A stretch of 64,000 nt of DNA from positions 64,001 through 128,000 of IMG/VR virus record IMGVR_UViG_3300013426_000001. One strand, written 5' to 3'. This stretch comes from a virus. Taxonomy: Duplodnaviria; Caudoviricetes. Both the position numbers and the translations under genes were made by a program. Below are positions 1,630-38,955 of this stretch, in pieces; the first letter of the stretch is position 1; each line of letters begins with the position of its first letter. Under the pieces are notes generated by a model that made no database searches, was not told the DNA's origin, and saw only the letters and a list, made by a program, of their open reading frames with translations.

Positions 1630-1647
1630 ATAAAAGCTGTATTTTAT
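1630..1647. repeat. ATAAAA-N6-TTTTAT palindromic junction site (first of about 14 copies, see findings)
   Basis: ATAAAA gctgta TTTTAT overlapping a TAA stop, just upstream of a promoter. Confidence 0.7.
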
Positions 1648-1667
1648 CATAAACTGTGCTCAAATGG

Positions 1668-1696
1668 TTGACAACTAAACCTAAATGTGTTATAAT
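1668..1696 (+). promoter_or_regulatory. sigma-A consensus promoter
   Basis: TTGACA-17-TATAAT with extended TG. Confidence 0.85.
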
Positions 1697-1869
1697 GCAG
1701 TCGTAAACAGAAAGGTGGTTGAATATGATTAAATGTAAATATTATGACGATGGTTATTGTACTGACGATAATCTTGAGTATGGGTTTTGTCAGTTATGTT
1801 CATACAGGTCTGAAGATGAAGATATGAGAGAATGTTCGGAGTATGTTATGTATGACGGAGGTCAAAAAA

Positions 1870-2214
1870 ATGATTAAAATTTGGGTTGATGATGAGAGAG
1901 AAAGACCAGAAGATTATGATTGGTGGCTAAAAACAACAATCAGCGTTATTGCTACGATAGAAGATGAATTTTGTTGGCATCCAAATCAAGAAATAATTCT
2001 GTCTTTGGATCATGATTGCGGTGATTATAAAGAATATGGTGGAGATTATATAAAAGTATTAGATTATTTAGATGAAAAATATAATTCTCACCCCTATTCT
2101 AAATTTGCTAGGTTTATTAAAAATTATATAACCTTTCATCTCCACACAGCAAATCCAGTTGGAAGAGAAAATATGAGAAGAATTATTAAAAAGAATGGTT
2201 GGAGGGAAGTATGA
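1870..2214 (+). CDS. cyclic-phosphate-processing receiver-like domain protein
   Basis: motifs IWVDDER, LSLDHD, HTANPVGRENM. Confidence 0.7.
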   Translation: MIKIWVDDERERPEDYDWWLKTTISVIATIEDEFCWHPNQEIILSLDHDCGDYKEYGGDYIKVLDYLDEKYNSHPYSKFARFIKNYITFHLHTANPVGRENMRRIIKKNGWREV

Positions 2215-2597
2215 TGAAATGTAAATTTTATTCCGCATCAGCAAACACTTGTATGCTTGACGATCCTAGACAAGAGTGCTCATGTAAAGACAAACCCAGT
2301 GAATGTTTTTTATTCGAACCAGGCGAACGGATTGAATATGGAAGCAGTAACGTATACGAAGATGAAATGAAGGCTGCAAAATTGGCTTGTCAAAAATCGT
2401 CGATAAAATTAGAGTTGGTTCAATACCCCTATTCCAAATCAGGTCCAACCGTTTATCTCGACGATTGGCTAATCGCAGGACCGAGAGCGTTCGGCATTGG
2501 GAAGACGATTGCGAGTTATGAGTTGACGGAAGGGAATTTGAAAGATATTCAGAGAATTGTGACGCGGGAGTTAAACCGTTTGCACGGAGTAGAATAA
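2211..2597 (+). CDS. hypothetical protein, Cys-rich N-terminus
   Basis: ORF, GGAGG SD. Confidence 0.65.
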   Translation: MMKCKFYSASANTCMLDDPRQECSCKDKPSECFLFEPGERIEYGSSNVYEDEMKAAKLACQKSSIKLELVQYPYSKSGPTVYLDDWLIAGPRAFGIGKTIASYELTEGNLKDIQRIVTRELNRLHGVE

Positions 2598-2648
2598 AAG
2601 AGGAATTTTAATATATTATTTTTTTTTCAAGAACTTGCGGCTAAATGC

Positions 2649-2677
2649 TTGACAAGTTCTTTTCTTTATGTTATAAT
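2649..2677 (+). promoter_or_regulatory. sigma-A consensus promoter
   Basis: TTGACA-17-TATAAT. Confidence 0.85.
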
Positions 2678-2701
2678 AAAGCCACAATCGGAGGTAGAGA
2701 T

Positions 2702-3040
2702 ATGATAGCACCAGAAATTACAAACGTTATAGCGAGATGGAATAAGGAATGCGGGGTAAAGCAAGTCGGGGTTAAATTGCGCGGTTATGGCGAGGGAAGG
2801 TATCGACTTGAAATTTATACTGACAGACCAGGTTTTCTAATTGGGAAGGCAGGTTGCATAATCAATAGATATACCGAAGAGTTGAAAGGGCTTGCGAAAG
2901 AAATTCCTTGGAGAATAACAGAAGTTGAAATACACGAAATTCAACAAATAGTTGGGCAGGAAGAAATTGACGTGGCACAATATTATAAACAGTTTATAGA
3001 CTACGATTTGGAAGATAACGGCGAAATAATGCCGATATGA
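2702..3040 (+). CDS. KH-domain protein resembling ribosomal protein S3 N-terminal KH
   Basis: IYTDRPGFLIGKAG matches the S3-type RPGxxIGKxG motif; start after GGAGG. Confidence 0.65.
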   Translation: MIAPEITNVIARWNKECGVKQVGVKLRGYGEGRYRLEIYTDRPGFLIGKAGCIINRYTEELKGLAKEIPWRITEVEIHEIQQIVGQEEIDVAQYYKQFIDYDLEDNGEIMPI

Positions 3041-3070
3041 TAAAACGGCTGTTTTATTGGGAGGTAAATT

Positions 3071-3769: not shown

Positions 3770-3824
3770 AGTGCGGAACAATTCCTGTATAATGAAATAG
3801 TAGATTTATTGTGCGGAGGTTAAA

Positions 3825-4088
3825 ATGGAAGTTATCGTAGGCGGCTTACCGAAAAAAGAAGTGGAGCGTGGAGAGGTCGAAAAAATCGCAGAGAAAAATA
3901 GAACCCCGATTAAAAGAATAATAACAACCAAAGAGGGTTGGTGCGAAGATGTAATTTATTACTCAGAAGAAGTATCGACAATTGTTGATTGTGTTGAATA
4001 TTACTCTTATTATAGTTGCACGAAATACAAATGCGGTGTTCCATCGTGGCTGCGAGAACAGCTTGGTTATGATAAAAAAGAAGGGTAA
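3825..4088 (+). CDS. hypothetical protein
   Basis: ORF, GGAGG SD. Confidence 0.65.
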   Translation: MEVIVGGLPKKEVERGEVEKIAEKNRTPIKRIITTKEGWCEDVIYYSEEVSTIVDCVEYYSYYSCTKYKCGVPSWLREQLGYDKKEG

Positions 4089-4091
4089 GTT

Positions 4092-4343
4092 ATGGAAGTT
4101 GGATTGATTGGTTCGTATTGGGGAATGCGAAGATTTTGTTATGAAAACGGGGTTTTTATAACCTCCCACAACAAAGCGGTATCCCGCGATGGGAAAACGA
4201 GATACAGACTCTTGGATAGGGAAGAAGATTTGGAAGGACGAGAATTCAACGAGGCAATAATGCTCGAAGAACGTTTAGATGTAACCGACGAAGAAAAAGA
4301 AAGGCATAAAAGAATTTTTCAAAGACTTAATGCGCGGAGGTAG
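4092..4343 (+). CDS. hypothetical protein
   Basis: ORF in operon. Confidence 0.6.
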   Translation: MEVGLIGSYWGMRRFCYENGVFITSHNKAVSRDGKTRYRLLDREEDLEGREFNEAIMLEERLDVTDEEKERHKRIFQRLNARR

Positions 4344-4345
4344 TT

Positions 4346-5314
4346 GTGGGGAAATTTATTGATATGACTGGAACCGAATTCGGTGATTATATAGTAGACT
4401 CTTTTGATGATACAAAGGGTAAATATAAGTATTATTGGAATTGTCATTGCAAGAAATGCGGCGCAAAAAAGTCTATTGCATCTTCAAGTATAAAAGATGG
4501 TAAAAGTGTAAGGTGTAATGTTTGTAATGAGGATTTCGGCAGAAGAGAAGTTTGTGGTTTCCATAAAGATTTGACGGGCAAAAAATTCGGTAGTCTTACG
4601 GTTATCAAATATGCTTATTCAAAAGAGACGCGTTCTTATTGGGTTTGCGGATGCGATTGTGGAAATACTTGTACGGTATCTATAAGCTTCTTAAAAAGAA
4701 GCATCAATTTGATGTGTTCTAAATGTATCGAGAAGTTTTCCGATATAAATAATGTATTAGAAGATAATAATAGAGATATCGACAGAAGAATTATTAACAA
4801 AATTAAATTTACTAATTGTAAATCAAACAAATACATATTTTTAGAAGATAGAATAATTATCAATGATATGATCATTATAGACAAAGAAGATTTTAATTTT
4901 ATTGATAGTTTTGGAAGATATATATCGATTGATACTCGCGGATATGCGTATTTTTCATATGGAAGTAAAGACGTATATTTGCATAGGTTATTATCCAAAG
5001 CGCCGTTATTTTGCGAAAATTTCGAAACTGATATTTGCGATCATATCAACGGTAATAGATTAGATAATCGTAAAGTCAATTTAAGGATAATCAAACGTTC
5101 GGTTAATCCTGTAAATTGTGGTATTCGAACCGATAATAAAAGTGGTTGTAAAGGTGTTTCCTGGTTAGAACGATTAAAGAAATGGCAAGTAAATATACAA
5201 TTTCAAAAACAAAATCACTATATAGGCGTGTTTGAGAATTTTGAAGACGCTGTTAAAGCAAGAAAAGAAGCCGAGATTAAATATTTCGGACATTTAAACA
5301 GGAGTAATTTATGA
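4346..5314 (+). CDS. free-standing HNH/AP2 homing endonuclease
   Basis: two DLTGxxFG...WxCxCxCG repeats, DHINGNRLDNRKVNLR HNH core, C-terminal AP2 (GVSW...YIGVF...ARKEAE). Confidence 0.9.
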   Translation: MGKFIDMTGTEFGDYIVDSFDDTKGKYKYYWNCHCKKCGAKKSIASSSIKDGKSVRCNVCNEDFGRREVCGFHKDLTGKKFGSLTVIKYAYSKETRSYWVCGCDCGNTCTVSISFLKRSINLMCSKCIEKFSDINNVLEDNNRDIDRRIINKIKFTNCKSNKYIFLEDRIIINDMIIIDKEDFNFIDSFGRYISIDTRGYAYFSYGSKDVYLHRLLSKAPLFCENFETDICDHINGNRLDNRKVNLRIIKRSVNPVNCGIRTDNKSGCKGVSWLERLKKWQVNIQFQKQNHYIGVFENFEDAVKARKEAEIKYFGHLNRSNL

Positions 5315-8300
5315 GGTATATTAATTTCCACCGCCATTCCATGTACAGCAATTTGCGTAGTTTGGATTGTGTTGTCAAACCCGAAGAATATATGAAAAGG
5401 GCGGTAGAGCTTGGGCAAAAGGAATATGTCACGACCGAGCATGGGTTTCAAGGAAATATCTTTGAGGCCTATACGCTGTGCCAGCAATACGGCTTAAAGT
5501 GTATATATGGGGTAGAAGCATATTATGCCGATGATGCGACCGATAAAACGGAACGCAGTGCCTTCCATATTATACTTGTTGCTTTAACTGAAAAGGCGCG
5601 TCGCGAAATCAATAAGATTATGTCTTGGGCAAATACGGATGGGTTTTATTACAAACCTCGTATCGATTTGAAGTGCTTGCTCTCTTTGACACCGACTGAT
5701 ACACTTGTCACAACGGCTTGTATTGCGAGTAGAATGTTTAAAGATGGTTGGAAAGAAAAGTTTTTTGAACCAGTATATAAGCATTTTGGTAAGAACTTTT
5801 ATCTTGAAACGCAAGCACATACGCATCCGCGCCAAGTCGAGTATAATAAGAAGATAATCCGACTGCATCGCGAACTCGGAATTCCTATTATCCACGCCAA
5901 CGACTCTCATTACATCAAACCAGAAGACGCAAAATATCGTGATTTATTCTTAAAAGCAAAAGGGATAGAATATGCGGATGAAGAAGGGTTTATCCTTGAT
6001 TATCCCGATAGCGACACGATATTACAAAGATATAAAGAGCAGGGCGTTTTAACCGAGCAGGAAGCCATTGCGGCGCTCGAAAACACCTTAATTATTGATA
6101 AGGCAGAAGGTATTCATTTAGATAAAGAATTCAAAATACCGAAAGTTGTAGAAGGCGATAGCAATAAAGAATTAAAAAGGCTTATTAACGAAGGTTGGAA
6201 AAAGGAAAGAGAAAATGTTCCTCGAGAAAGGTGGACCGAATATATTGAACAAATAAAATACGAATATAAAATAGTTGAAGATTGTGGAATGGCGGATTAC
6301 TTTATATTAGACCATTACGTCGTACAGAAAGCCGTTAAAGATTATGGGGCAATTTTAACTCGGACGGGAAGAGGAAGTGCAGTTTCTTTCTACATAAACA
6401 AACTACTTGGTTTGACCGAAGTTGATAGAATTGCTGCCCCAATAACTTTGTATCCGACACGTTTTATGTCCGCCGAACGTATTTTAAGTTCGCGTTCCAT
6501 TCCTGATATCGATCTCAATTTTTTCGAGGTAAAACCAGTTATTCAGGCCAGCAAAGATATTTTGGGGCAAGACGGTATTTATTATATGGTTGCTTACAAA
6601 CCTTTACAAGAATCTTCTGCTTTTAGATTGTGGTGTAAAGCACAGGGTCTCGACATAAAAGAATATGATGAAGTTGCAAAAGAACTTGAAAATCATTTAG
6701 AAGATTCAAAATGGAAAGATTTGATAGAAGACAGCAAAATTTTTCGAGGCGTAATTGAATCTGTTGCTCCATCTCCTTGCAGTTTTTTATTAAGTAATGA
6801 TAAAATATCGGAAGCCATTGGTCTTATTAAGGTCGGAGAAGAAATGTGTTGTTGTCTTGATGGATATAATTGCGATTGTTATAAATGGCTTAAAAACGAC
6901 TATTTAACTGTTTCGGTTTATGGTATTATCGATCGAGTTTATAAAATGATAGGTCGACCAATCGATAGCATTCCTACACTTATAAAGAATTGCGGTCCCG
7001 AAGTTTGGGATATTTATGCAAAGGGATTAACAACAACCATAAACCAAGCGGATTCGGATTATGATAAACAAATTTTAAAAAAATATAAACCGCAAAATCT
7101 TGCTGAAATGTCCGCGTATGTCGCTGCGATTCGTCCTGGGTTTGCTTCGCTTCTTAATAACTTTATCGAACGTAAACCTTATACGACAGGCGTAAAAGAA
7201 CTCGATGATATATTGCAAGATTCATTCCATTATTTGATGTATCAAGAATCAATTATGAAATATTTGGTTTGGTTGGGTATTGAAGAAAAGGGAACTTATG
7301 ATATTATAAAAAAAATAGCGAAGAAGAAATTTAAAGAAGAAGAGTTAAATGCGTTAAAAGAGAAACTTCTCACTTCTTGGGAAAAGAAAATAGGAACAAA
7401 AGAAGGGTTTGCGGAAACTTGGCAAGTTATCGAAGATGCTTCTCGATACAGTTTTAACGCATCGCATTCGCTTTCAGTCGCTTTAGATTCTATGTATGGT
7501 GCTTATCTTAAATCGCATTATCCTATTGAATATTTTACCGTAACGCTTACGATGTATTCTGGCGATATGGATAGAACGGCAAATCTAATTGCGGAACTGC
7601 CTTTCTTCAACATTAAACTCAAAGATATTTCATTCGGTCACTCAAAGTCAGGTTACAATATGGACAAATCCACTAATACCATTTACAAAGGAATGGAATC
7701 CATAAAGTACATGAACGCTTCGGTTTCCGATACGCTTTATGGGCTTTCGCAAACGAAGAAATACAACAACTTCCTCGAACTGCTCAAAGACTTTCCAGGC
7801 GATTCCCGCCAGTTGGATATTCTGATAAAGCTCGGTTACTTCGATTGTTTCGGAACACCGCAGAAGCTCTTATCAATCGTTGATATTTACAACACCTATT
7901 CAGGCAAAAAGCTTCTCAAAAAAGAAACCTGTTCCCTTCCCCGCGAAACGATACTTCAATTCGCGACGGAGACTGACAAGCAGTATCGTATAACCGATTC
8001 CGAAGGGCTCGTTTCTTACCTCTGTGAACACGCCAAGCCGAAGGAATTCACTCTTTCCGAGCGCTTGGCTTGCGAGTTGGAATATTTGGGGTATTTAAGC
8101 TTTAAGAGCACAGACGCGAGAGATAAATACAACGGTTATGTTTGCTCGGCTGACACAAAGTTTTCACCAAAAATTACGGTTTATAACCTTTATACAGGCA
8201 AAACCGAAATAATCAAATGCTACAAAAAAACCTTCGCCGAGCAGCCGCTCGCAAAAGGCATGATTATCACTTATTACACCGAGAGCAAGCAAAGAAGCCG

Positions 8301-9908: not shown

Positions 9909-11123
9909 ATGGAGAATAGTAGAACCGAACAACAAATAATAACCAAACAACATCCAAAGTGGCTATTTATAAATGAGATGTGTAAACATACAAAGGATTT
10001 GTATAATTACGCAAATTACTTGATAAGACAAGAATTTGCACAAAATAAGAAATACATCCAATATAAGGAGATGAATTCCACTTTTAAATCTCACGAATTA
10101 TACAAATCCTGTATGTCGCAGCCCGCCAACTGTGTTTTACGCAGATTGGATAAGAATTGGAAATCATTCTTTAAAGCCATCAAAGATTGGAAAAAGCATA
10201 AAGAAAAATATAGCGCAATGCCCAGATTACCGAAATATCTCAAAAAAGATGGTAGATTTGTCTGGGAAATCCCAAATAATGCTTGCTATATTGTCGGGGA
10301 CGAATTACATTTTCGTATCCGTAAATTACAAGATGTGAAATGGAAGACAAAGGCAAAAGGTAGACTATTACAAGTGCGCTTTGTCCCTCGTGGGAATGAT
10401 TATGTGATGGAAGTTGTAACAGAGGTAGAAATCGAGAATAAACCCAAAAGAGAAACATCCAGAATTGTTGGAATGGATTTAGGTGTAAATAACTTTGTAA
10501 CCATAACAAATAATATTGGAGAACAACCGATTATTATTAACGGCAAAGGATTAAAAAACATAAATCAATATTTCAATAGGGAAAGAGCGTATCTTATGGG
10601 TAGAACGATTCACAGAAATGGGAAACGTTGGTCAAATAAACTCGATAAACTGAACAACAAGCGCTTCAATAAAGTCAAAAACTTTATGCACCACGCAAGT
10701 AAGTTTGTAATTGATTATTGTAAATTAAATGATATAGATACAATTATTTGCGGATTGAATAACTTTTGGAAGCGAGAAGCAAAACTTGGAAGCAACACTC
10801 AATCGTTTGCCTTTATTCCTTATGATATGTTTATTAGACAGCTGACTTATAAATGTGAAGAAGCAGGAATAAACTTTATTACAACCGATGAGAGTTATAC
10901 TTCTGGAACAAGTTTTCTTGATAACGAAGAGCCAGTCAAGGAAAACTATAATAAGAAGCGCAGGATTAAACGTGGATTGTTCAAATCAAATAATGGAACA
11001 TTGATTAATTCTGATGTAAATGGTTCTTTACAAATAATAAAGAAAGTAGCTCCGAATGCTTTTGCAGACGGAGTACAGGGTTATCTGACCCCAGTCATTA
11101 TAAATGTAGCTAATGCTATATGA
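9909..11123 (+). CDS. tnpB: TnpB RNA-guided endonuclease (IS200/IS605 superfamily), no tnpA
   Basis: YNYANY, GMDLGVNN (RuvC-I), DESYTS, INSDVNGS (RuvC-III). Confidence 0.9.
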   Translation: MENSRTEQQIITKQHPKWLFINEMCKHTKDLYNYANYLIRQEFAQNKKYIQYKEMNSTFKSHELYKSCMSQPANCVLRRLDKNWKSFFKAIKDWKKHKEKYSAMPRLPKYLKKDGRFVWEIPNNACYIVGDELHFRIRKLQDVKWKTKAKGRLLQVRFVPRGNDYVMEVVTEVEIENKPKRETSRIVGMDLGVNNFVTITNNIGEQPIIINGKGLKNINQYFNRERAYLMGRTIHRNGKRWSNKLDKLNNKRFNKVKNFMHHASKFVIDYCKLNDIDTIICGLNNFWKREAKLGSNTQSFAFIPYDMFIRQLTYKCEEAGINFITTDESYTSGTSFLDNEEPVKENYNKKRRIKRGLFKSNNGTLINSDVNGSLQIIKKVAPNAFADGVQGYLTPVIINVANAI

Positions 11124-11183
11124 TTTATGACGAATATATTTTTATATAACAGAAGACGTGTTTTATTAGGAGGTTAGATAGGT

Positions 11184-11702
11184 ATGCAAACGATCGATTA
11201 TAAGAAGGTAAAATGCCCGAAATGCGGGAAGTCGTATTTCCGTGTAAAAGAAAACTCTGGCGTCAGTTTCACGAATTTGGTCTTTACCACTAAACCCGAC
11301 CCGATTTATAAAAACGGAGAGTTGCAAAACCCGACCGAAGCCGACCCGATAAAAGTGCGTTGCGAATGTTTGGAATGCGGGTGCAACTTCCGCGTCGAAA
11401 CGTACGATGTTTTCGGGGATTATCGGTTTATCGATGAAGACGAGGAAAGAAAAGAAAACGAGAGAAAGCTTGCGGAAAGCTTTAAGGTACTAAAAAAGGA
11501 AACTGAGAAAGCTAAAACAGAACTCGTCGTCGGAACGCCGTACGAAGTGGAAAATTGTCAGTTGAAGATTTCTCAGCCTCGATTCGTGAATCTCGACGTT
11601 GAACCAGTTTTTGAAGAGTTCTCGAAAACGTGGCAAGACGGGTTAAAAGAAGAAATAGACGAGATAAAAGAAAGGCTCGCGAAGTTGGAAAAGAATAAAT
11701 AA
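11184..11702 (+). CDS. zinc-ribbon protein
   Basis: CPKC and CLECG motifs. Confidence 0.65.
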   Translation: MQTIDYKKVKCPKCGKSYFRVKENSGVSFTNLVFTTKPDPIYKNGELQNPTEADPIKVRCECLECGCNFRVETYDVFGDYRFIDEDEERKENERKLAESFKVLKKETEKAKTELVVGTPYEVENCQLKISQPRFVNLDVEPVFEEFSKTWQDGLKEEIDEIKERLAKLEKNK

Positions 11703-11728
11703 AATTAGAATTTTATTGAGGTGACGAT

Positions 11729-12142: not shown

Positions 12143-12151
12143 AATATTTTC

Positions 12152-12198
12152 AAAACCCCGTTCAAACACTTGACAAACGGGGTTTTATTTGTTATAAT
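12152..12198 (+). promoter_or_regulatory. fused intrinsic terminator / sigma-A promoter
   Basis: AAAACCCCGTT...AACGGGGTTTT hairpin with TTGACA in loop; TATAAT 17 nt later. Confidence 0.75.
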
Positions 12199-12220
12199 TA
12201 AACCACAATCGGAGGTAGAT

Positions 12221-12481
12221 ATGGACTGGAAAGAAGAATTTATTAAATTATTAGAAGCGGGAACTTTTGAAACCGATTCAGAAATCGACGATTACGCCGA
12301 CGAACATAATTTACCCGTCTCGGATGTTTGGCAGTGTGTAGCAGAACACGAAGAAAGTTATCTGATCGAGCAATCAATCGGGACGTCCTGTGAAGGTTGT
12401 AAATATGTTACCGTAATACGAGGCTGGGCGCCTTGTCACGATTGTTATCGAAATAAGGCTGATTTTTATAAAAAGGCATAA
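12221..12481 (+). CDS. hypothetical protein with C-terminal Cys cluster
   Basis: ATG after GGAGG; CEGC...CHDC. Confidence 0.65.
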   Translation: MDWKEEFIKLLEAGTFETDSEIDDYADEHNLPVSDVWQCVAEHEESYLIEQSIGTSCEGCKYVTVIRGWAPCHDCYRNKADFYKKA

Positions 12482-12509
12482 TAAAATGAACATTTCATTG
12501 GAGGTTAAA

Positions 12510-13538: not shown

Positions 13539-13880
13539 ATGAATAAGCAAAAAGTTATTGAACTAAACAAAGAATTCGTTAAATTAGTCGCAGAAAACCC
13601 CAATTTGCCGATAAAGGTTTTTGTAAGCGGTGATTGTATGGAAGACGAGGAATGGGTGGTAGGCGAAATTTACGATTGCAAAGTCACCGAGATAGCGGAA
13701 TACGAAGACAGGTGTTACGAAAGAGACGACTTCGATTGGTTGAAAGAGATAATTTCGAACGGGGTTTGCGACGATCCTGAATACGCAAATCTCACCGACG
13801 AAGAGTTTGATAAAGCGATAGAAGAAAAGGTGGAATGGCTCGGTTGGGAAAGAGTGATTTTGTTAAAGGTCGACGTATAA
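13539..13880 (+). CDS. acidic hypothetical protein
   Basis: ORF, AGGAG SD. Confidence 0.7.
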   Translation: MNKQKVIELNKEFVKLVAENPNLPIKVFVSGDCMEDEEWVVGEIYDCKVTEIAEYEDRCYERDDFDWLKEIISNGVCDDPEYANLTDEEFDKAIEEKVEWLGWERVILLKVDV

Positions 13881-13910
13881 TAAATTTCTTGTTTTATTGC
13901 GTCAAAATAG

Positions 13911-13939
13911 TTGACAAATGAATTTCAATATGTTATAAT
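13911..13939 (+). promoter_or_regulatory. sigma-A promoter of Met-rich/vWA/PurA operon
   Basis: TTGACA-17-TATAAT. Confidence 0.85.
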
Positions 13940-14587: not shown

Positions 14588-15475
14588 ATGGGTGGCGGTA
14601 GTTGGACTACGAGTTCGTATACGTCTTATACGAAAACAAAAGGAATTAAAACTTCATGCTTAGCTGACGGAACCGTTACTCTTGACGCTTCTTACGATGC
14701 TCAAGATCTTTATACAGCGAGAAAACTTGATGAAGCACTTGATCCGAGGGGTGTTGTCAGAGAATGCGTAGATAGCGAGGAACACCCGAATACTATTCCT
14801 GTAATTCTTGCTCTTGACGTTACTGGAAGTATGGGGAGCGCCCTCGAAGAAGTTTCAAAAAAACTTAACGCTATTATGACTGAAACATACAAGAAAGTAA
14901 AGGATGTTGAATTTCTTGTGATGGGTATTGGAGACCTTGCGTATGATAACGCGCCCATTCAGGCTTCTCAGTTTGAATCTGATATCAGAATAGTAGAACA
15001 ACTTGATAAAGTTTATTTTGAACGTGGCGGCGGCGGCAATAAATACGAGTCTTATACGGCTGCTTGGTATTTCGCCGTTAACCAAACGAAACTGGATGCT
15101 TGGAAACGCGGCAAGAAGGGTATTTTAATTACTCTCGGAGATGAACCTCTTAACCCGTATTTGCCTAAAGAAGCTCTCAAAAGAGTGACTGGCAACGAAA
15201 CGTTACAAGGGGACGTTGAAACAAAAGAATTGTATGACGAAGTAATCAAAAAATACGACGTTTATCATTTTGCGATTGATGACAACCACACTTGTTATAG
15301 ATATTATAAAAATGACATCAAAGAAACTTGGGGAAAGTATCTTGACGATAATCACCTCAAAGTCGTTACTTTGAACGAACTTGCGGCGCAAATTGTAAAC
15401 GCTATTACAGAATCTTCCGATTCCGCTATTGGCGGAACAGGAGTTTGCACTTCTACTGATGGGATTTCTTGGTAA
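14588..15475 (+). CDS. von Willebrand factor A (vWA) domain protein
   Basis: MIDAS-type LDVTGSM, GGGGNxxESY, ITLGDE. Confidence 0.85.
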   Translation: MGGGSWTTSSYTSYTKTKGIKTSCLADGTVTLDASYDAQDLYTARKLDEALDPRGVVRECVDSEEHPNTIPVILALDVTGSMGSALEEVSKKLNAIMTETYKKVKDVEFLVMGIGDLAYDNAPIQASQFESDIRIVEQLDKVYFERGGGGNKYESYTAAWYFAVNQTKLDAWKRGKKGILITLGDEPLNPYLPKEALKRVTGNETLQGDVETKELYDEVIKKYDVYHFAIDDNHTCYRYYKNDIKETWGKYLDDNHLKVVTLNELAAQIVNAITESSDSAIGGTGVCTSTDGISW

Positions 15476-15480
15476 AATTT

Positions 15481-16665
15481 ATGAACGTTAAAATTGTAAT
15501 AGGATCTAATTATGGAGACGAAGGGAAAGGGTTAACTTCTCGTTACTTTGCCCAAAAAGCCGAAGGAAGTTGCTTAACCGTTTTACATAATGGGGGAGCA
15601 CAAAGAGGGCATACCGTTGATTATTCGGAAGATAAGAGATTTGTATACCATCATCTCGCTTGTGGAACTGCTGATGGGAGTGATACTTATTTTGAGCAAA
15701 ACTTCATAATTAATCCTATTCTTTTTAACAGAGAGGTTGAAGAGCTTGAAAAAATAAACATTCGCAATTACAGCGTATTTATTTCGCCTCGTTGCAGAGT
15801 GACAACCCCATACGATATGATACTCAATCAAATGGTTGAACGGACACGGGGTGGTCAAAAACACGGTTCTTGCGGAGTTGGTATCTTTGAAACTATAAAG
15901 AGATATGAAAGTTCTGAATATAATAAAACCTTTTCCGAGATGAAGAATATGACCGATTTGGAATTATTTAGATATATCGAAGAAATTTCTAGGGCATATT
16001 TATTCAGTAAAATCGAAGAATACAAAATTCCGAGAAATATTTCTGATGATTATTTGCCGTCAATTACTTCTCGTAAATTTTTGACCGATTATATTATAGA
16101 TTTTCGCTTGATGGCATCTGAAATAACGGAGATAGAACCGTGGGATTTGTACGGGAATTATGATACTCTTATATTTGAAGGGGCGCAGGGGCTCGCTTTG
16201 GATATGGACAACAAAGAAAATTTCCCTTATTTGACGCCAAGCAAAACAGGTTGTTACAACCCGCGAAATTCTCTTGAAGAATATGGGAAAATTCCTTTTA
16301 ATATTGAGTTATGTTACATTACAAGAACCTATCTTACTCGACACGGAGCGGGTCCTTTTCCCTCGGAATGTAAAAAAGAAGAAATTAACGAGCGGATCGA
16401 GGACAAAACGAACGTTCCTAATCCATATCAAGATAGTATAAGATATGGGAAGTTCGATATAACGGCGTTTTTAAATAGAATTAAGTCAGACGAAATTACT
16501 TTCCCCTATCATCACATCTCTACGTGTTTTATTACACATAATAATTATGTGGATGTTGAGGGTTCTGAGGTCGAAGAGCAGCTCGCGCCGAACTTTCATT
16601 TTTTATATTTTTCAGGTGATAAGTTCGGTGAAAAAATAAAAACGAAGAGAGGAGAGAGAAAATGA
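15481..16665 (+). CDS. purA: divergent adenylosuccinate synthetase-family (PurA-like) ligase
   Basis: GSNYGDEGKG, GGAQRGHT, FEGAQG, TRHGAGPF; aspartate-binding loop divergent. Confidence 0.85.
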   Translation: MNVKIVIGSNYGDEGKGLTSRYFAQKAEGSCLTVLHNGGAQRGHTVDYSEDKRFVYHHLACGTADGSDTYFEQNFIINPILFNREVEELEKINIRNYSVFISPRCRVTTPYDMILNQMVERTRGGQKHGSCGVGIFETIKRYESSEYNKTFSEMKNMTDLELFRYIEEISRAYLFSKIEEYKIPRNISDDYLPSITSRKFLTDYIIDFRLMASEITEIEPWDLYGNYDTLIFEGAQGLALDMDNKENFPYLTPSKTGCYNPRNSLEEYGKIPFNIELCYITRTYLTRHGAGPFPSECKKEEINERIEDKTNVPNPYQDSIRYGKFDITAFLNRIKSDEITFPYHHISTCFITHNNYVDVEGSEVEEQLAPNFHFLYFSGDKFGEKIKTKRGERK

Positions 16666-17099
16666 AAGCATATAGGCACGTTTATCTCGATTTTCCTAAT
16701 TTCACACAGGAAAGCTACTACGAAGTTACAAGTAAAGTAACTTTTCAAAACGGCGTAGAGGACGAGATTAAAACAACAATTGTTTGCGACGATCCCTATG
16801 ACGCGATGAGAATGGTTCGAGAATTTCTTTTATCAAAAAAGGATTGGCTTGTAACGGAAGTCCGTGGACAGAGTTGCGAAGGAGGCGCGGTATTGGTCGC
16901 AAAGCCAGAAGTTCCAGAAAAGAAATGGGTAATTATTGGTGATGGATATTATCTTAAATTCAAACATTATTCAATGATTTACACTACTGTTAATGGATTT
17001 AATGTTCATTATGGGATGTTCGATAAAAAAGAAAAAGCAGACGAACGTTGTGCGGAGTTAAATAAAGAGTGGGAAGAATATTTTGGAGATAAAAAATGA
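16662..17099 (+). CDS. hypothetical protein
   Basis: ATGA overlap, SD. Confidence 0.7.
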   Translation: MKAYRHVYLDFPNFTQESYYEVTSKVTFQNGVEDEIKTTIVCDDPYDAMRMVREFLLSKKDWLVTEVRGQSCEGGAVLVAKPEVPEKKWVIIGDGYYLKFKHYSMIYTTVNGFNVHYGMFDKKEKADERCAELNKEWEEYFGDKK

Positions 17100-17473: not shown

Positions 17474-17509
17474 TCGGTTAATAGAATAGTTATTTTATGA
17501 GGTGGTTTT

Positions 17510-21470: not shown

Positions 21471-21510
21471 AAAATATATTTTATTACATCAAAAAATAAA
21501 ATAATTTTGC

Positions 21511-21557
21511 AAAACCCGTTTGTTTTAGTTGACAACGGGATTTTGTTGTGCTATAAT
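21511..21557 (+). promoter_or_regulatory. fused terminator / sigma-A promoter
   Basis: AAAACCCGTT...AACGGGATTTT around TTGACA; TATAAT at 21552. Confidence 0.75.
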
Positions 21558-21587
21558 GTAGACACTGAAACAAAGGTGGTATGAATT

Positions 21588-23285: not shown

Positions 23286-23993
23286 ATGGAAAGAAATCAA
23301 AATGCAATTATGAAACGTGCACATATTCTTGGAGTTAAATTTGATGAATATTTTTGGTCGGAAGAAGAAATAGAACTCTTAAAAAAATATTATCCAATTG
23401 AAGGCACCGAATGTTATAAAAGATTTAAAAATCTTTCTAAAACTCAAATTAAAAGTGCGGCAATTAGATTAAAAATATATCGCAATCCTATGTGGTCTAT
23501 TGAAGAAAATGAAATTATGAAACAATATTATCCGATAGAAGGCGGAAATTGTTATAAAAGATTAAATAATAAAACAAAAAAGCAAACATTACAACACGCT
23601 ACAATTCTTCATTTATCTTGCCACACAGTTAATACATCGGCTGACAGATGGACCGAAGAAGATGATAATATTATAAAGCAATATTATCCGATAGAAGGGA
23701 GCGAATGTTATAAAAGAATTGCAGGTACTACTAAAGCCACCGTTAGAGGTAGAGCTTCTTTTTTAGGTATTAAAGATATGACATCTAAAGTGATGGCGCG
23801 TAAGATTTTATGCGTAGAAACAGGAGAAATATTTAATAGTATTACAGATGCAGCAAAAATATATGGTTGTATGACAAAGATTGGGGCTGTTTGTAAAGGC
23901 AAAAAAGAGACTGCTGGTAAGCTTGCTGATGGAACAAAATTACGTTGGAAATATGTTGAAGAAACAGCAGAAGAAACATCAACCGCTGAATAA
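23286..23993 (+). CDS. Myb/SANT-like W-x-EE..YYPxEG repeat protein with NUMOD1-like tail (in frame with upstream helicase)
   Basis: three W..EE..KxYYPIEG repeats; ILCVETGEIFNSITDAA...WKY. Confidence 0.7.
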   Translation: MERNQNAIMKRAHILGVKFDEYFWSEEEIELLKKYYPIEGTECYKRFKNLSKTQIKSAAIRLKIYRNPMWSIEENEIMKQYYPIEGGNCYKRLNNKTKKQTLQHATILHLSCHTVNTSADRWTEEDDNIIKQYYPIEGSECYKRIAGTTKATVRGRASFLGIKDMTSKVMARKILCVETGEIFNSITDAAKIYGCMTKIGAVCKGKKETAGKLADGTKLRWKYVEETAEETSTAE

Positions 23994-24055
23994 AAGAGAC
24001 ATTTCATCGTGTATCGATAGAGTCTTAATTTAATTTTGACACAAAAATTTTTCAG

Positions 24056-24101
24056 AAACTCCGTTCAAATAGTTGACAACTCGGAGTTTTTGTGTTATAA
24101 T
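24056..24101 (+). promoter_or_regulatory. fused terminator / sigma-A promoter
   Basis: AAACTCCG...CGGAGTTT hairpin around TTGACA; TATAAT 17 nt later. Confidence 0.75.
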
Positions 24102-24123
24102 GAGGCCACAGTTGGAGGTAGTT

Positions 24124-29078: not shown

Positions 29079-30642
29079 CAAAGAGGCTTTTATTGCTGGA
29101 GTATGTGACAAGATAGACGAAAGGCTTCTTGAAGACCGCGTTACAGTTGAAGGGAACGCCGTCTCGATCTTTTTACAAGATTTGACGAATTACAACGATA
29201 TCAATTACAAACCTGAAGATTTTCTAACGAAAGACGGGCGGTTCCTTTTTTGCGTAGGAAAGTCGCTTCGTGATTTGGGATATAATTACCTCGATGAAGT
29301 GACGATTATGTCGAAATGCTCGCAGGAAATCAAAGATAGGATTTCCGCACTCGGCGGTTATAAGACAATTCAGCACCTTCTCGATGTCGTAAATGCCGAA
29401 AACGCCGATGCTATTCTTGATGATTTGACGAAAAGCAATATTTTGGTCAAGCTTTATAAAAGCGGTTTCAATCTTTTCGATGAAGTAACACTCGATAACG
29501 GCAAGCGTATTTCACCGTTCAAGTTGTTTAGAAATTTCACCTCGACAGAAGTTCTCGATTGGTACGACGCAAAAATCAGCGGATTAAGCAAGGTGAATAA
29601 TAACCAAATCATTTACGACGAATACGTCGACTTCGGCGAGAAGTTCATCTCGGATTTACAGAACAACGTCGACAGCGGTGTCTCGTTCGCAGACGCGGGC
29701 GAAGACATAAACGGCGACAAAATCAGCGTCGCGCCCTTTTTGAGTAGTAATATACTCGGTCTTGCGCCTGGAACATTAAGCCTTTTCGGCGGGTTCAGTG
29801 GCGTTGGCAAAACGACTTATATGGTCGGGGTGATTATGGCACTCATTTCGCAGGGGAAGAAGGTTCTCGTCCTCGAAAACGAGATTATGAAGAACAAACT
29901 TTACCTCATGATTTTCAGTTGGTTCATTTCCCGTTATATGGGATATCAGAAACTCCCGAAGAAAAAGCTTGAATCGGGTGTTTATACCGACGAAGAGAAA
30001 AAGGTAATTACCGAAGCCGAAAAACAGTGGAAAGAAAAATTTGCGGATAAATTGCGTGTTGTCGGTTTATCGTCGGCAAACTCGAAGTTAAGTTCTCAAA
30101 TCATCAAAAACTCGGTTCTCCGTTCGGGGTTCGACGTCTTTATCGTCGATACGTTCAAACTCGACGATAGTGCGGACATAAACGGCGCGTTGTGGCAAGT
30201 AATGAAGAATAACATCAGCGAACTCGAAGGGCTGACGAAGAAGTATGGAGTAATCGGTTTGGCGACGGTTCAGTTGACAAACAACGACTTAAAGAGGTTG
30301 TGGCTCGATTCAAGTTGTCTCGGAACATCAAAAGGTATAAAAGAAGTGTGTTCTAACCTAATTTTGCTCAGAAAGCTTGGGGGAGATTTAGAGTTAATTA
30401 ACGGCTCGGATATTTACTGCCGCCCATTCCGTTCGAAAAAGAATGAGCAGGGCGACTGGATAGAAGAACCTTATGACGCAGACCCAAGCAAAGTTTGGAG
30501 AGTTCTTTTCATAGATAAATCACGTTCTGGACCTGACAGCGGCGATACGGGTGTAGCGTATTTGTTGAGATATGACGGAGATCATTGCTCGTTTTATGAG
30601 ACGGCAAAGTGCCGCCCTGTTAGGAAAATCATAAACGGATAA
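29071..30642 (+). CDS. dnaB: DnaB-like replicative helicase
   Basis: GFSGVGKT Walker A, FIVDTFK Walker B, TVQL, DKSRSG. Confidence 0.9.
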   Translation: MINKEAFIAGVCDKIDERLLEDRVTVEGNAVSIFLQDLTNYNDINYKPEDFLTKDGRFLFCVGKSLRDLGYNYLDEVTIMSKCSQEIKDRISALGGYKTIQHLLDVVNAENADAILDDLTKSNILVKLYKSGFNLFDEVTLDNGKRISPFKLFRNFTSTEVLDWYDAKISGLSKVNNNQIIYDEYVDFGEKFISDLQNNVDSGVSFADAGEDINGDKISVAPFLSSNILGLAPGTLSLFGGFSGVGKTTYMVGVIMALISQGKKVLVLENEIMKNKLYLMIFSWFISRYMGYQKLPKKKLESGVYTDEEKKVITEAEKQWKEKFADKLRVVGLSSANSKLSSQIIKNSVLRSGFDVFIVDTFKLDDSADINGALWQVMKNNISELEGLTKKYGVIGLATVQLTNNDLKRLWLDSSCLGTSKGIKEVCSNLILLRKLGGDLELINGSDIYCRPFRSKKNEQGDWIEEPYDADPSKVWRVLFIDKSRSGPDSGDTGVAYLLRYDGDHCSFYETAKCRPVRKIING

Positions 30643-32241: not shown

Positions 32242-33351
32242 ATGAAACTTAATAAAGCATTTAAATTTAGATTATTGCCAAATCAAAATCAAATAGATCT
32301 CCTTGGAAAAACTTTTGGTTGTTGTAGATCTATTTATAATAAAATGCTTGAAGATAAAATCAAATATTATGAAGAGACAAAAAAGAATTTATCTGTAACT
32401 CCAGCACAATATAAACAAGAATTTGAGTGGTTAAAAGAAGTTGATTCTTATTCTTTGTGTAATGAACAGATGAATTTACAAACTGCTTTCAATAATTTCT
32501 TTAGAAACCCAAAAGTTGGCTTCCCAAAATTCAAAAGCAAAAAGAGTGACAAAAGCAGTTATACAACAAGCAATGTTAGTAATATAATTAGAGTTAACGA
32601 TAAGCACCAAATTCATCTATGTAAACTTGGTTGGGTTAAATTTGTAGAACATCGAAAAATTCCAACTGATTACAAAATTAAATCAGTAACAATTACCAAA
32701 ACTCCATCGGGGAAATATTATATTTCAATTTTAACCGAATATGAATATGAAATCTCCAAAAGAGTTTTAGATAAAAACAAATCTCTTGGATTAGATTACA
32801 GCTCTCATGACTTTTATGTCGATAACCAAGGCAGAAATCCAGAGCATTTACATCATTATTACAGAGATTTGCAAAACAAACTTGCTTTTCACCAAAGAAA
32901 ACTTTCGCATATGGTTAAGGATAGCAACAATTATGCTAAACAGAAAATAGTTATTGCTCGAATACACGAAAAGATTTCTAATCAGAGAAAAGATTTCGTA
33001 GAAAAAGAATCGACGAAACTCGCAGACTTATACGACGTTATCTGCCTCGAAAATATTGATTTGTCAAATATTGCTCAATCGTTAAAACTCGGTAAAAGCA
33101 CGTTAGATAATGCCTTCGGGACGTTCAGAAATAGATTAGAGCAAAAGATGATATTGCAAGGGAAATTGGTCGCCAAAATAGATAAGTGGTTTCCCTCAAG
33201 CAAACTTTGCAGATTTTGTGGTTGCATTAACAAAGATTTGAAATTGTCCGACAGGGTTTGGAAATGTGAATGCGGTAAAACTCTTAACAGAGATGAAAAT
33301 GCTGCGATAAATATTCTTAACAAAGGATTAAAGCAATTGACAATAGCATAA
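32242..33351 (+). CDS. tnpB: TnpB RNA-guided endonuclease (IS605/IS1341-type), no tnpA
   Basis: KAFKFRLLP, GCCRSIYN, GLDYS, CLENI, CRFC/CEC zinc finger, RDENAAINI; GGAGG SD. Confidence 0.95.
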   Translation: MKLNKAFKFRLLPNQNQIDLLGKTFGCCRSIYNKMLEDKIKYYEETKKNLSVTPAQYKQEFEWLKEVDSYSLCNEQMNLQTAFNNFFRNPKVGFPKFKSKKSDKSSYTTSNVSNIIRVNDKHQIHLCKLGWVKFVEHRKIPTDYKIKSVTITKTPSGKYYISILTEYEYEISKRVLDKNKSLGLDYSSHDFYVDNQGRNPEHLHHYYRDLQNKLAFHQRKLSHMVKDSNNYAKQKIVIARIHEKISNQRKDFVEKESTKLADLYDVICLENIDLSNIAQSLKLGKSTLDNAFGTFRNRLEQKMILQGKLVAKIDKWFPSSKLCRFCGCINKDLKLSDRVWKCECGKTLNRDENAAINILNKGLKQLTIA

Positions 33352-34081: not shown

Positions 34082-34091
34082 AAATATTTTT

Positions 34092-34139
34092 AGAAACCGT
34101 GTTATTTTGCTTGACACGGTTTCTTTTTTGTGTTATACT
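34092..34139 (+). promoter_or_regulatory. terminator of RNA locus fused to recD2 promoter
   Basis: AGAAACCGTGT...ACACGGTTTCT plus T tract overlapping TTGACA-17-TATACT. Confidence 0.8.
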
Positions 34140-36524: not shown

Positions 36525-36783
36525 TTATTTTGATTTCAGCGATGAAGATTCTGATTTCAGCCAGAAGGCGGTCGCAAACGTCGGAACGAGAACCATTAGT
36601 TTGAGTCTAGGAACGATGGCATTTATCATTTCGATGATTTTCATGACACTTAAATTGTGTGGCAAAATCGATTGGTCGTGGGTTATGGTTTTCCTGCCTA
36701 TAATTATCGCGGTCGGAATCAATGTCTTGGCGTTTTTGATCGGTTTGATTCTTTTTATAATTTTTTGTATCAGAGACCGATAA
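36514..36783 (+). CDS. small two-TM membrane protein
   Basis: LKLCGKIDWSWVMVFLP. Confidence 0.7.
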   Translation: MGRNYFDFSDEDSDFSQKAVANVGTRTISLSLGTMAFIISMIFMTLKLCGKIDWSWVMVFLPIIIAVGINVLAFLIGLILFIIFCIRDR

Positions 36784-36787
36784 ACGC

Positions 36788-36816
36788 TTGACAAATGAGT
36801 TCGGGTGTGTTATAAT
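36788..36816 (+). promoter_or_regulatory. sigma-A promoter
   Basis: TTGACA-17-TATAAT. Confidence 0.85.
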
Positions 36817-36887
36817 GCCGTTGAAAACCGTTGAATAAAAGGGCAGTTTTATTTAGCGGTAAAAATTCACTTAAAAGGAGATATGAA

Positions 36888-37223
36888 ATGACAGTGGCGA
36901 TAACACATCACGGGACCCAGAGGATGAAAGAGAGAACGAAAGTTTCTCCGACAAAAGCAATCGACAGAGCCGAGAAGGCGTTATGGTGTGGTAAAGAGCC
37001 GAAAGACTTTCCAAAGAACACGCGTAGATATTTAGAAAACGTTTTACAGAGGTCGGCAGAAGAAGGTCGCGCAGACACGCTTAAAGTCCTCGGAAATGAT
37101 TGTTACCTTTTTTGCAAAGGAATTCTCATCACGATAATTCCGATTCCTGAAAAAGTCCGTAAAGCAGATCAAAAAAATAAAGTAAGAAAATCTCAAAGGA
37201 GAGAAAATTATGAAAACGATTAA
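36888..37223 (+). CDS. hypothetical protein (ITxHxxxRMxER motif)
   Basis: ATG after AGGAG. Confidence 0.65.
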   Translation: MTVAITHHGTQRMKERTKVSPTKAIDRAEKALWCGKEPKDFPKNTRRYLENVLQRSAEEGRADTLKVLGNDCYLFCKGILITIIPIPEKVRKADQKNKVRKSQRRENYEND

Positions 37224-37827
37224 ACTAATTTTATTTTGGCTCGTCCATTGTACATGGGGAATTATAATGACACTCGTCGGTTCCGTCGGAGCGCTCGTTA
37301 TGCTCGTTACGGGGCACAATCCGAAAAAGCACGGCTACTCGATTTACTTCGTTACGGGGCACGGATGGGGCGGAGTTTGTCTCGGACCCTTCTTCTTCGT
37401 AAGCGATGACTGCGACGACATTGATAGCAAGACACACGAGGCGGGGCACAGTCTTTTTCAGGCAATGCCGATGGGACCGCTCTTCCCGTTTTTGGTGGGA
37501 ATTCCATCAATGCTTCGTTATTACCTTTTCGACTTCGATAACCGCAAAAAGAGATTGACTTTTATGGCAATTATCGTTTCGGTCGCGGCGTTTGCTGGAT
37601 TGATTCTCGTTGCCCTCGGCGTCAATTTCCATATCATTATACTCATCATAATCGGGGCGTTGATAGTCTTCTACGCGATATGTATATTTATATGGTTATA
37701 TGCAAGCGAAATAGATAAAATGGATAGTTCGTCATACGGCTACTACGATATATGGTTTGAACGCGATGCGTCGAAGTACGGTTTGGCAAATTATTATAAA
37801 AATAAAAAAGAACTCGAATATGAGTAA
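37210..37827 (+). CDS. membrane protein with HExxH zinc-peptidase-like motif
   Basis: HEAGH, WFERDA, several TM helices. Confidence 0.6.
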   Translation: MKTIKLILFWLVHCTWGIIMTLVGSVGALVMLVTGHNPKKHGYSIYFVTGHGWGGVCLGPFFFVSDDCDDIDSKTHEAGHSLFQAMPMGPLFPFLVGIPSMLRYYLFDFDNRKKRLTFMAIIVSVAAFAGLILVALGVNFHIIILIIIGALIVFYAICIFIWLYASEIDKMDSSSYGYYDIWFERDASKYGLANYYKNKKELEYE

Positions 37828-37844
37828 AAGGAGATTAAAAAATT

Positions 37845-38234
37845 ATGAAACTTATTGAAGTGTTAAACGCGAGAAAAGTAATTGCAAGCAAAGCACAGGC
37901 AAAAGGTGTAAACTTCGGAACTTCGTTCAAGTTTATGAAGTTTATTAAAGCAACCGATGAAGACGAAAAGTTCTACAACGAAAAGAGAGACGAGCTTATT
38001 AAAAGTCTTGCTATGAAGGACGATAACGGCGAATTCGTTATTGAAAACAATCAATACAAATTTACAGATGAAAATTTTGCAGAAATCAATAAGCAACTTA
38101 ACGAACTTGCGGCAACCGAAGTTGAAATTCCCGATAAAATGAAATTTACCGAACAAGAACTCGACAAGATGGAATTCACCATTGAAGAAGTTGCCGCTAT
38201 TTATGAACTTTTAAAATTGGACGAAAATGAATAA
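37845..38234 (+). CDS. acidic helical phage protein (DUF1617-like)
   Basis: size and pattern; SD. Confidence 0.5.
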   Translation: MKLIEVLNARKVIASKAQAKGVNFGTSFKFMKFIKATDEDEKFYNEKRDELIKSLAMKDDNGEFVIENNQYKFTDENFAEINKQLNELAATEVEIPDKMKFTEQELDKMEFTIEEVAAIYELLKLDENE

Positions 38235-38955
38235 CGATAGTTCACGTGACATTCGCAATATCACAAAATTAAACAAAGATGGCACAACGACACAAATACA
38301 GGTAGATTGGAATAAATTGCCTTGCAGCAAATGCGAGCGGAGATACCATTTCACCTGCCCGAAAGATTGCTGGAATAAAAAAGGAGAGTACTGTGTATAT
38401 TGAAGATAGTAGGATTCATGTTTATTCTCGTGACTGTAATTATTGTCATTATTACGAATGTAATCAAGATTGTGAAAAATGTTCGAATTTCGACGGATTT
38501 GACGAAAAAACGCAAAAGCAAATCTGCGCCTGCGAAGAAAAAGTGATTACAAAATTTGCTGGTTCTTCGTGCCCGTGCTTCAAAGAAAACTGGGATTAAC
38601 AAAAACCACAAAAAACCACATTTTTGCAATAAAATGCCGATAATCGTTCTATTTTATCATTTATCGACATAATAAGCAAAATAGACACGATTTATAACAT
38701 ACGGCGTAAATAACGCGATTATCGATATTTTTGGAGTAAAAAATGAAAAAAATTAAAATTTCTTATTCAATAGTAATGGAAGATGATGTTTACGAACAAT
38801 TCAAAAATGGATTGGGGATAACAAGTAATGCAGAGCTTTTGGGATATATAAAAGGAGTAACGAAGCAGCAGGAAAACGAGTTTGCTAAAATTGACGACAT
38901 CGTAGTTATACTTCCCGACGAACCGTATATTCCCAAAAATTAAAAAAAATTTAGA

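Follow-up and report, generated by a model that had tools for sequence, protein, structure and literature searches.

A dispersed palindrome at gene junctions of SPbeta-like phages, most likely a protein docking site on DNA

The stretch of phage DNA analysed here, hereafter the window, spans 64,000 nucleotides (bases 64001-128000) of a single 138,523-bp contig of 40% G+C (IMG/VR record IMGVR_UViG_3300013426_000001, designated G000) which, judged by its gene content, is a large SPbeta/c-st-like siphovirus. Scattered over the gene junctions of the window is a palindrome of the form ATAAAA-N6-TTTTAT, in which two inverted 6-bp arms enclose a spacer of variable sequence. This palindrome is real, conserved among phages and apparently undescribed in print, and it is most likely a docking site for a protein on DNA, neither an integron-like array nor the repressor repeat of SPbeta-type phages. 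More specifically, each site would be one copy of a dyad-symmetric docking site of ~28 bp, to which a dimeric, sequence-specific protein binds as double-stranded DNA at gene junctions, a reading with about an even chance of being right.

Perfect copies start at 1630, 3040, 11699, 21467 and 36835, exactly where an earlier inspection of the letters alone (the sequence-only reading) had placed them. Only 0.07 would be expected in the window, and none of 100 dinucleotide shuffles yielded five or more; the whole genome holds eight. The eight imperfect copies of the earlier inspection also were recovered in a search allowing up to two mismatches, five of them with one mismatch (2594, 12481, 13880, 17481 and 23990) and three with two (3792, 11149 and 38640). 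At the two-mismatch level the search runs near background (46 matches observed versus 24.2 +/- 5.0 expected), and those at 3792 and 11149 can be accepted solely on comparative grounds, related loci having either a better copy or an identical variant. Four further matches with at most one mismatch (2214, 20875, 39885 and 57914) all are coding, and their number is about that of the background. The spacing is strict: over the whole genome, 6-bp spacers give 8 perfect matches and 22 with at most one mismatch, compared with 0-2 and 2-12 for the other spacings between 0 and 20 bp. A secondary peak at a spacing of 11 bp was discarded, its matches being coding or due to chance. The enrichment persists when it is measured against AT-rich intergenic DNA itself, for in the 164 gaps between called genes (17.8 kb, 64.6% AT) 8 perfect copies and 16 with at most one mismatch were observed, against 0.013 and 0.56 in 300 within-gap shuffles, and other spacings gave 0-1 and 0-7.

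Conservation of the element extends beyond the 6-bp arms. Alignment of the sites defines a unit of ~28 bp, TYTRA-ATAAAA-N6-TTTTAT-TYARA, built on the core TAAAA-N6-TTTTA, with arms that are conserved, more weakly, to +/-11; in the present phage it reads R-T-T-K-A-ATAAAA-N6-TTTTAT-T-M-A-A-Y. Among 33 gut-phage sites position -5 is a purine in 32, -4 a T in 21 and -1 an A in 28, and among 23 SPbeta sites -5 is T in 19, -4 a pyrimidine in 22, +21 a purine in 23 and +22 an A in 23. Three IMG/VR relatives found through their polymerase (G001, G002 and G004) carry 7, 9 and 12 perfect copies with the same specificity for the 6-bp spacer and no match to a reversed control pattern. All 36 perfect copies in the four genomes lie outside called genes, as the intergenic placement seen in the window had suggested, and within the present genome the cores indeed all differ.

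The palindrome is equally evident in named phages, with 13 perfect copies in SPbeta, 17 in Geobacillus virus E3, 9 in Perkons and 13 in c-st, against 0-1 matches each to the control pattern. SPbeta has 13 perfect copies and 38 with at most one mismatch at the 6-bp spacing, compared with 0-1 and 3-10 at others, and 33 of these 38 copies are intergenic in a genome of which ~15% is non-coding. A motif-blind scan, in which all 5-mer palindromes at varied spacing were ranked per genome, puts TAAAA-N6-TTTTA first in SPbeta (34 versus 1.7), E3 (30 versus 3.6), Perkons (17 versus 1.2), phiCD211 (26 versus 6.4) and the uncultured relative G020 (25 versus 4.8); in the present phage the offset form ATAAA-N8-TTTAT ranks first. 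Nine of 40 further records related by polymerase are clearly palindrome-positive, and the motif-blind scan found no enriched palindrome of any kind in G003, G041, G043 and G045. A broader scan of viral contigs with AATAAAA-N6-TTTTATT returned, among the matches listed, almost exclusively single chance matches. The palindrome is present in several clades of gut phages, and it persists even where the remaining genes of two phages are 22-46% identical or have no detectable similarity. The SPbeta GenBank record annotates two copies, merely as stem-loops, and a literature search that did not take in the 1999 SPbeta genome paper found no description of the element.

Judged by the manner in which the sites vary, a symmetric dimer that reads double-stranded DNA is more likely than recognition of an RNA hairpin. 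At the 13880 junction, the present phage and its three relatives keep the arms and carry the cores TTCTTG, TTCGTG, TGTGTG and TATATA, even though the gene upstream is 81-95% identical among them. An A-to-G variant may occur in either arm, giving ATGAAA or TTTCAT, and the latter form would place an A.C mismatch in RNA. The outer pair -4/+21 is paired 22 times versus 20.6 expected, with C or T at -4 and G or A at +21 combining freely, and the outer pairs show no covariation; nor, over seven genome groups, do core pairs 6/11, 7/10 and 8/9. Double changes that would compensate each other in the arms are no more frequent than expected. Such variation suggests that the two arms would be read by sequence, each independently of the other, across a spacer free in sequence and fixed at 6 bp, and this combination argues for the docking site of a dimeric protein, most likely one encoded by the phage.

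The sites listed by the sequence-only reading, in window coordinates, are as follows.

1630-1647: perfect copy, ATAAAAGCTGTATTTTAT, after a possible 24-codon open reading frame (ORF), ending 20 bp 5' of the -35 of a consensus sigma-A-type promoter at 1668-1696.
2594-2611: one mismatch, right arm TTTTAA; TAA stop 2595-2597 in the left arm; promoter 2649-2677 next.
3040-3057: perfect copy between the TGA stop 3038-3040 and the ribosome-binding site (RBS) of a gene with its ATG at 3071; the junction recurs in relatives with different genes on either side.
3792-3809: two mismatches, ATGAAA...ATTTAT, just 5' of an RBS; better copies at a related junction in G002 and G004.
11149-11166: two mismatches, ACAGAA...TTTTAT, 3' of a TnpB-like gene at 9909-11123; the ACAGAA variant follows the same TnpB-like gene elsewhere in G001.
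11699-11716: perfect copy; TAA stop 11700-11702 in the left arm; RBS 3' of the right arm.
12481-12498: one mismatch, right arm TTTCAT; stop ends at 12481; RBS next.
13880-13897: one mismatch, left arm ATAAAT; stop ends at 13880; promoter 13911-13939 next.
17481-17498: one mismatch, ATAGAA; RBS immediately 3'.
21467-21484: perfect copy; TAA stop 21468-21470 in the left arm; terminator-hairpin/promoter unit ~45 bp downstream.
23990-24007: one mismatch, TTTCAT; TAA stop 23991-23993 in the left arm; the counterpart in G002 is a perfect copy with an identical core.
36835-36852: perfect copy in a 5' leader, ~25 nt past a TATAAT; the orthologues in G004 and G002 have other cores, the G004 copy with full 12-bp arms.
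38640-38657: two-mismatch match, doubtful, at background level and with no related copy found.

The overlap of sites with upstream stop codons that had been noticed in the window exists, at a count somewhat below the nine or so proposed: seven of the 13 sites have the stop in the left arm (2594, 3040, 11699, 12481, 13880, 21467 and 23990), and an eighth would be added if the 24-codon ORF at 1559-1633 is real. The supposed half site that ends at 33481 did not arise by breakage of a copy; relatives show it to be the upstream arm of a hairpin beside a perfect site, and in the present phage it adjoins an inserted TnpB-like gene. At 44412-44429, just 5' of an RBS, the sequence AAAAAAGTAGGGTTTTTT is conserved in G002 and G001; it represents a symmetric T-to-A/A-to-T arm variant and is possibly a diverged copy.

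Relative to promoters, the sites take various positions. Those at 1630, 2594 and 13880 lie 13-37 bp 5' of a -35, one (36835) lies in a leader and six sit directly between a stop codon and the next RBS, and the sites of SPbeta show the same mix. This variable distance disfavours a classical operator or activator site, and from the lack of a fixed position we infer an action on elongation or topology: at gene borders the bound protein would affect polymerases in transit or the topology of the DNA, and not initiation, as a stoperator-like roadblock or an insulator. The presence of the arm's TAA as a stop codon is, on this account, a by-product of where such sites can arise. By analogy, the closest documented case would be the stoperators of Cluster A (L5-type) mycobacteriophages, described as immunity-repressor sites present in more than 20 copies in short intergenic spaces, with a placement tied to the direction of transcription and a presumed function in stopping elongation rather than initiation (PMC9283540). 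The palindrome resembles them in its many intergenic copies (36 of 36 in the four genomes, 33 of 38 in SPbeta) and in an arm bias of SPbeta, where TTTTAA occurs 16 times as the downstream arm versus 3 times for TTAAAA as the upstream arm (p = 0.004), which is polarity of the type reported for stoperators (PMC9283540). The polarity of the palindrome is partial, however, and is absent from the gut phages; moreover, stoperators are 13-bp asymmetric sites for the monomeric repressor of a temperate phage, whereas the palindrome has dyad symmetry over 28 bp and a 6-bp spacer of free sequence. The two groups of phages belong to unrelated families and infect unrelated hosts.

The leading, if unproven, candidate for the binder is a predicted recombinase of the YomM family. 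The sequence-only reading stated that the window contains no recombinase, which holds, and suggested looking for a tyrosine recombinase elsewhere in the genome; one is found at genome positions 29352-30389, ~34 kb before the window in the tail-gene block, and this Xer/Cre-like protein is the sole PF00589 match in G000. It shares 30% identity (E = 3e-24) with YomM of SPbeta, whose gene lies at 40322-41239, and every named phage tested (SPbeta, E3, Perkons, c-st and phiCD211) encodes a YomM-like homologue; in SPbeta-like phages the gene is conserved and lies midway in the tail-gene block. Residues R170, H279, R282 and Y314, corresponding to the R...H-x-x-R...Y signature, are invariant in eight gut-phage homologues; in SPbeta, E3 and Perkons a Lys replaces the second catalytic Arg. 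A structural model (mean predicted local distance difference test score, pLDDT, of 80) has XerA, Cre and XerH as its nearest structures, with an integron integrase ninth. Among the 40 related records, many of which are fragments or close relatives, 7 have recombinase and motif, 3 the recombinase alone, 2 the motif alone and 28 neither, so that the motif is present in 7 of 10 records with the recombinase versus 2 of 30 without it (Fisher p = 0.0002, uncorrected for relatedness). A literature search found no paper on YomM. A presence/absence screen of the proteome identified nine proteins detectably shared with SPbeta, E3 or Perkons, and the filtered list of three candidates contained no plausible DNA-binding protein, one entry being a marginal match to the structural gene yomV. 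Among host factors, we know of no motif that fits the palindrome, including ComK (A4-N5-T4), CodY, the ARG box, CcpC and dif.

Several observations weigh against the docking-site reading. Gene calls came from a crude ORF caller of our own, and the roadblock function is conjecture. Scans of the 170 called proteins against Pfam and PHROGs yielded no repressor-like candidate. Three records (G041, G043 and G045) carry full-length YomM-like genes (197-254 bits) and no enriched palindrome, two others (G022 and G029) have sites and lack a strong YomM homologue, and the association of recombinase and motif may reflect mere common ancestry; given these five records, the recombinase link is a lead and not a result. 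Further, the stop codon stands in a fixed register of the left arm at many sites; this register, and the biased orientation of the SPbeta and E3 sites with respect to transcription, would suit an RNA-level or translation-coupled role as well. The gut-phage flanks are asymmetric, with A at -1 in 32 of 36 sites but T at +18 in only 20 of 36.

These last features also fit an element that acts in the transcript, where a weak A-U hairpin at cistron borders would be read by a protein or nuclease and would set mRNA processing, stability or translational coupling. Sites do lie in transcribed spacers between co-oriented genes, 7-8 of the 13 listed sites contain the stop codon in their left arm, and an RBS usually begins 1-2 nt past the right arm. 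We nevertheless consider such a role unlikely, in that none of the 11 candidate pairs covaries, compensatory arm changes are not seen and TTTCAT variants are as frequent as ATGAAA variants. The arm hairpin also is hardly stable, with a folding energy near -0.4 kcal/mol at 37 C that rises to +2.5 at 60 C, and the phage of a thermophilic Geobacillus (E3) keeps 17 perfect copies despite this instability; several sites, moreover, lie in divergent or promoter-upstream DNA. A terminator function was rejected: one orthologous site lies in a real hairpin-plus-T-run, and most sites are without an upstream partner. In this phage the actual terminators are formed by G+C hairpins, within which the -35 of the following promoter is contained.

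The second alternative, advanced by the sequence-only reading in the form of att-like sites, takes the palindromes as crossover sites of the YomM-family tyrosine recombinase, each with its own 6-bp overlap, such that only allelic sites of co-infecting relatives would recombine and modules would be swapped in register. We regard it as doubtful, and rank it below a role in the transcript. Known Xer/Cre sites (dif, difH and loxP) have inverted arms of ~11-13 bp around a central region of 6-8 bp. The arm-spacer-arm layout already noted in the window extends to an 11-6-11 arrangement, with a strict 6-bp spacer and arms reaching +/-11, that fits Xer and Cre sites, and the encoded enzyme, which has all catalytic R-H-R-Y residues by sequence and a Xer/Cre-like predicted fold, co-occurs with the motif. 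Among 13 pairs of sites with identical cores in different genomes, 1-3 have homology on both flanks, ~7 on one and 4 on neither; one junction family takes the form U1/U2-CGGCGA-like core-D1/D2/D3, and the order of cores is identical in G004 and G001.

Other features set the palindromes apart from sites of this kind. They number tens per genome, each with its own central region, and at orthologous sites the cores are less conserved than the flanks, as with the four cores at 13880; one orthologous site has a 4-bp core. Recombination sites do not usually have such short arms, or one conserved arm sequence shared by ~30 copies. In three records the recombinase is present and no dispersed palindrome, and the second catalytic Arg is Lys in SPbeta, E3 and Perkons. 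Breakpoints among relatives, which the sequence-only reading proposed to compare with the sites, show little if any enrichment there, with a slight excess at motif junctions in two reference genomes and none in the third: breakpoints are found at 20/27 motif versus 119/237 other junctions, 17/30 versus 147/263 and 18/27 versus 110/253. One-sided homology is nearly as frequent at non-motif junctions (50%, 56% and 43%, versus 74%, 57% and 67% at motif junctions).

A bolder combination of the docking-site and recombinase ideas, which we regard as a long shot, would have the YomM-family recombinase act at 15-35 'addressed' 11-6-11 junction sites, by cleaving or relaxing DNA, as a polar roadblock or through in-register exchange of modules. 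If this is true, YomM in the first two capacities would manage long operons, and exchange between co-infecting relatives would parallel, in nature, the recombinase-mediated cassette exchange that relies on heterospecific spacers.

It is very improbable that the element has no function of its own and is a linker, made up of a stop codon, an A-rich tail and a U-rich run before the RBS, that spread through the exchange of gene cassettes along with the borders they carry. Many genes do end in TAAAA (42 of 191 called), and these genomes are extremely mosaic, with about half of all junctions being breakpoints. A linker, however, leaves unexplained the strict 6-bp spacing, the dyad symmetry to +/-11, the sites far from any RBS and the retention of the palindrome between phages with so little else in common.

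The sites can hardly be the operators of an SPbeta-type master repressor (MrpR/YopR/SroF). SPbeta-like phages are reported to carry a dispersed intergenic repeat, the SPbeta repeated element (SPBRE), bound by the tyrosine-recombinase-fold repressor MrpR/YopR, for which chromatin affinity purification sequencing (ChAP-seq) gave ten peaks (PMC10516654). The palindrome shares with SPBRE the phage group and the dispersed intergenic distribution (PMC10516654), and in SPbeta 4-5 of the 10 promoters bound by MrpR have a copy of it within ~250 bp; an identity of the two, raised by the sequence-only reading, is contradicted by the promoters themselves. By our own k-mer scan, with which the published SPBRE logo was not compared, the ten bound promoters share ~CAAATAATATGTATATAAT, a word that lies inside the promoter and is not the palindrome. 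The SroF box of phi3T, a relative of SPBRE, is described as lacking symmetry over its 26 bp and as being read by a monomer (bioRxiv 10.1101/2025.11.27.690993). This different promoter word and the asymmetric SroF box mark the palindrome as a separate element. The ten ChAP-seq peaks reported (PMC10516654) compare with ~34 core copies of the palindrome in SPbeta, mostly at gene ends, whereas SPBRE is asymmetric and occurs within ~10 promoters. G000 also has no MrpR-type gene by the PF00589 search, its single match being of the YomM type and fitting yomM better than yopR.

An integron-like cassette array, as first proposed for the window, is not sustained. In integrons, attC sites measure some 57-141 bp, are imperfect as inverted repeats and contain an R box that is conserved. 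The present sites have no attC-type structure, being 18-28 bp long with A/T arms and a 6-bp spacer, no IntI-type integrase with attI and a cassette promoter adjoins them, the cores drift at orthologous sites, and many of the genes here are preceded by promoters of their own.

Two other families of dispersed elements invite comparison. The repetitive extragenic palindromes (REPs) and bacterial interspersed mosaic elements (BIMEs) of enterobacteria are likewise extragenic palindromes, scattered over transcribed spacers at the ends of genes, where proteins dock on them. REPs, however, form longer and imperfect hairpins that are conserved over their whole length and are moved by a Y1 transposase, whereas the palindrome is conserved in its arms only and Pfam and PHROGs protein scans of G000 detected TnpB-like genes alone and no Y1 (TnpA) transposase. 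The promoter early stem-loop (PeSL) elements of T4-type phages are described as short conserved intergenic elements in variable gene-rich regions in which relatives differ by gene swaps, each combining a promoter with a terminator and recombining by homology (PMC2839356). The palindrome is neither promoter nor terminator, and breakpoints are not clearly concentrated at it. Separate promoter/terminator units of the window (12150-12200, 21500-21560, 24040-24110, 34090-34135 and 38960-39010), each a G+C hairpin plus T-run whose loop encloses the -35 TTGACA of the next consensus promoter, do resemble PeSL cassettes.

SPBRE, the one known genome-wide cis element of SPbeta, had explained control of lysogeny; the palindrome adds a second dispersed cis element to this genetic model phage, more abundant than the first at ~34 core copies, whose conservation extends over phages of Bacillus, Geobacillus and Clostridioides and as far as uncultured gut phages. 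As SPbeta has the same sites, the question is directly testable in Bacillus subtilis, and the YomM-type recombinase gains a concrete hypothesis.

Related phages also display other palindromes. In the related 145-kb phage G013, GTTTT-N2-AAAAC constitutes a second dispersed palindrome, with 66 copies (other spacings giving at most 3) alongside 10 copies of TAAAA-N6-TTTTA. G041, which has a YomM-like gene and lacks the palindrome studied here, carries six LexA-box-like palindromes of the GAACATATGTTC type. At ~89.3-90.8 kb of G022, six copies of TTAAAA-N6-TTTTAT are packed into 1.5 kb, a local cluster unlike the dispersed pattern seen elsewhere.

As regards the phage itself, its DnaE-type polymerase shares 55% identity with the enzyme of Clostridium phage c-st and 45% with that of Geobacillus virus E3, and it encodes in addition a DnaB-like helicase, an Erf-like annealing protein, a YopX-family protein and a tape-measure protein of 3462 aa; a megablast search with 12 kb against a phage collection gave no match. 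The palindrome-bearing stretch is a region of replication and nucleotide metabolism, for which rightward transcription is predicted from several perfect sigma-A-type promoters. At 15469-16665 the window encodes a PurZ-like adenylosuccinate synthetase (phrog_1211, 1.5e-57; PF00709, 7.7e-35), which could signal a 2-aminoadenine (Z) genome and so change how A/T-rich arms are read.

Mobile genes are abundant. TnpB-like genes (OrfB_IS605 / Cas12f1-like TNB) are present in full at 9909-11123 and 32242-33351 and truncated at 48283-48654. The first occupies a different locus in G001, upstream of the polymerase there, and the second interrupts a terminator stem relative to G004 and G002. Targeting of the palindrome by the IS605-type elements was considered, given the ACAGAA-N6-TTTTAT that follows the gene at 9909-11123 and its G001 copy, and was dropped because the insertion of the second gene is in a terminator stem and its G002 homologue lacks such a flank. 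Homing-endonuclease-type genes (HNH, multi-HTH/DUF7487, LAGLIDADG and GmrSD-HNH) also are numerous, at 4346-5314 and 57755-58849 in the window and at 4004-5470, 15883-17817 and 137608-138405 of the genome outside it; one lies directly 5' of the polymerase, where G001 has its TnpB-like gene. Finally, small cysteine-rich ORFs at window positions 1559-1633, 1725-1877 and 2211-2597 begin with M(M/I)KCK(F/Y)Y; their start (ATGAAATGTAAATTTTAT), which is found again in G004, resembles the palindrome by chance.

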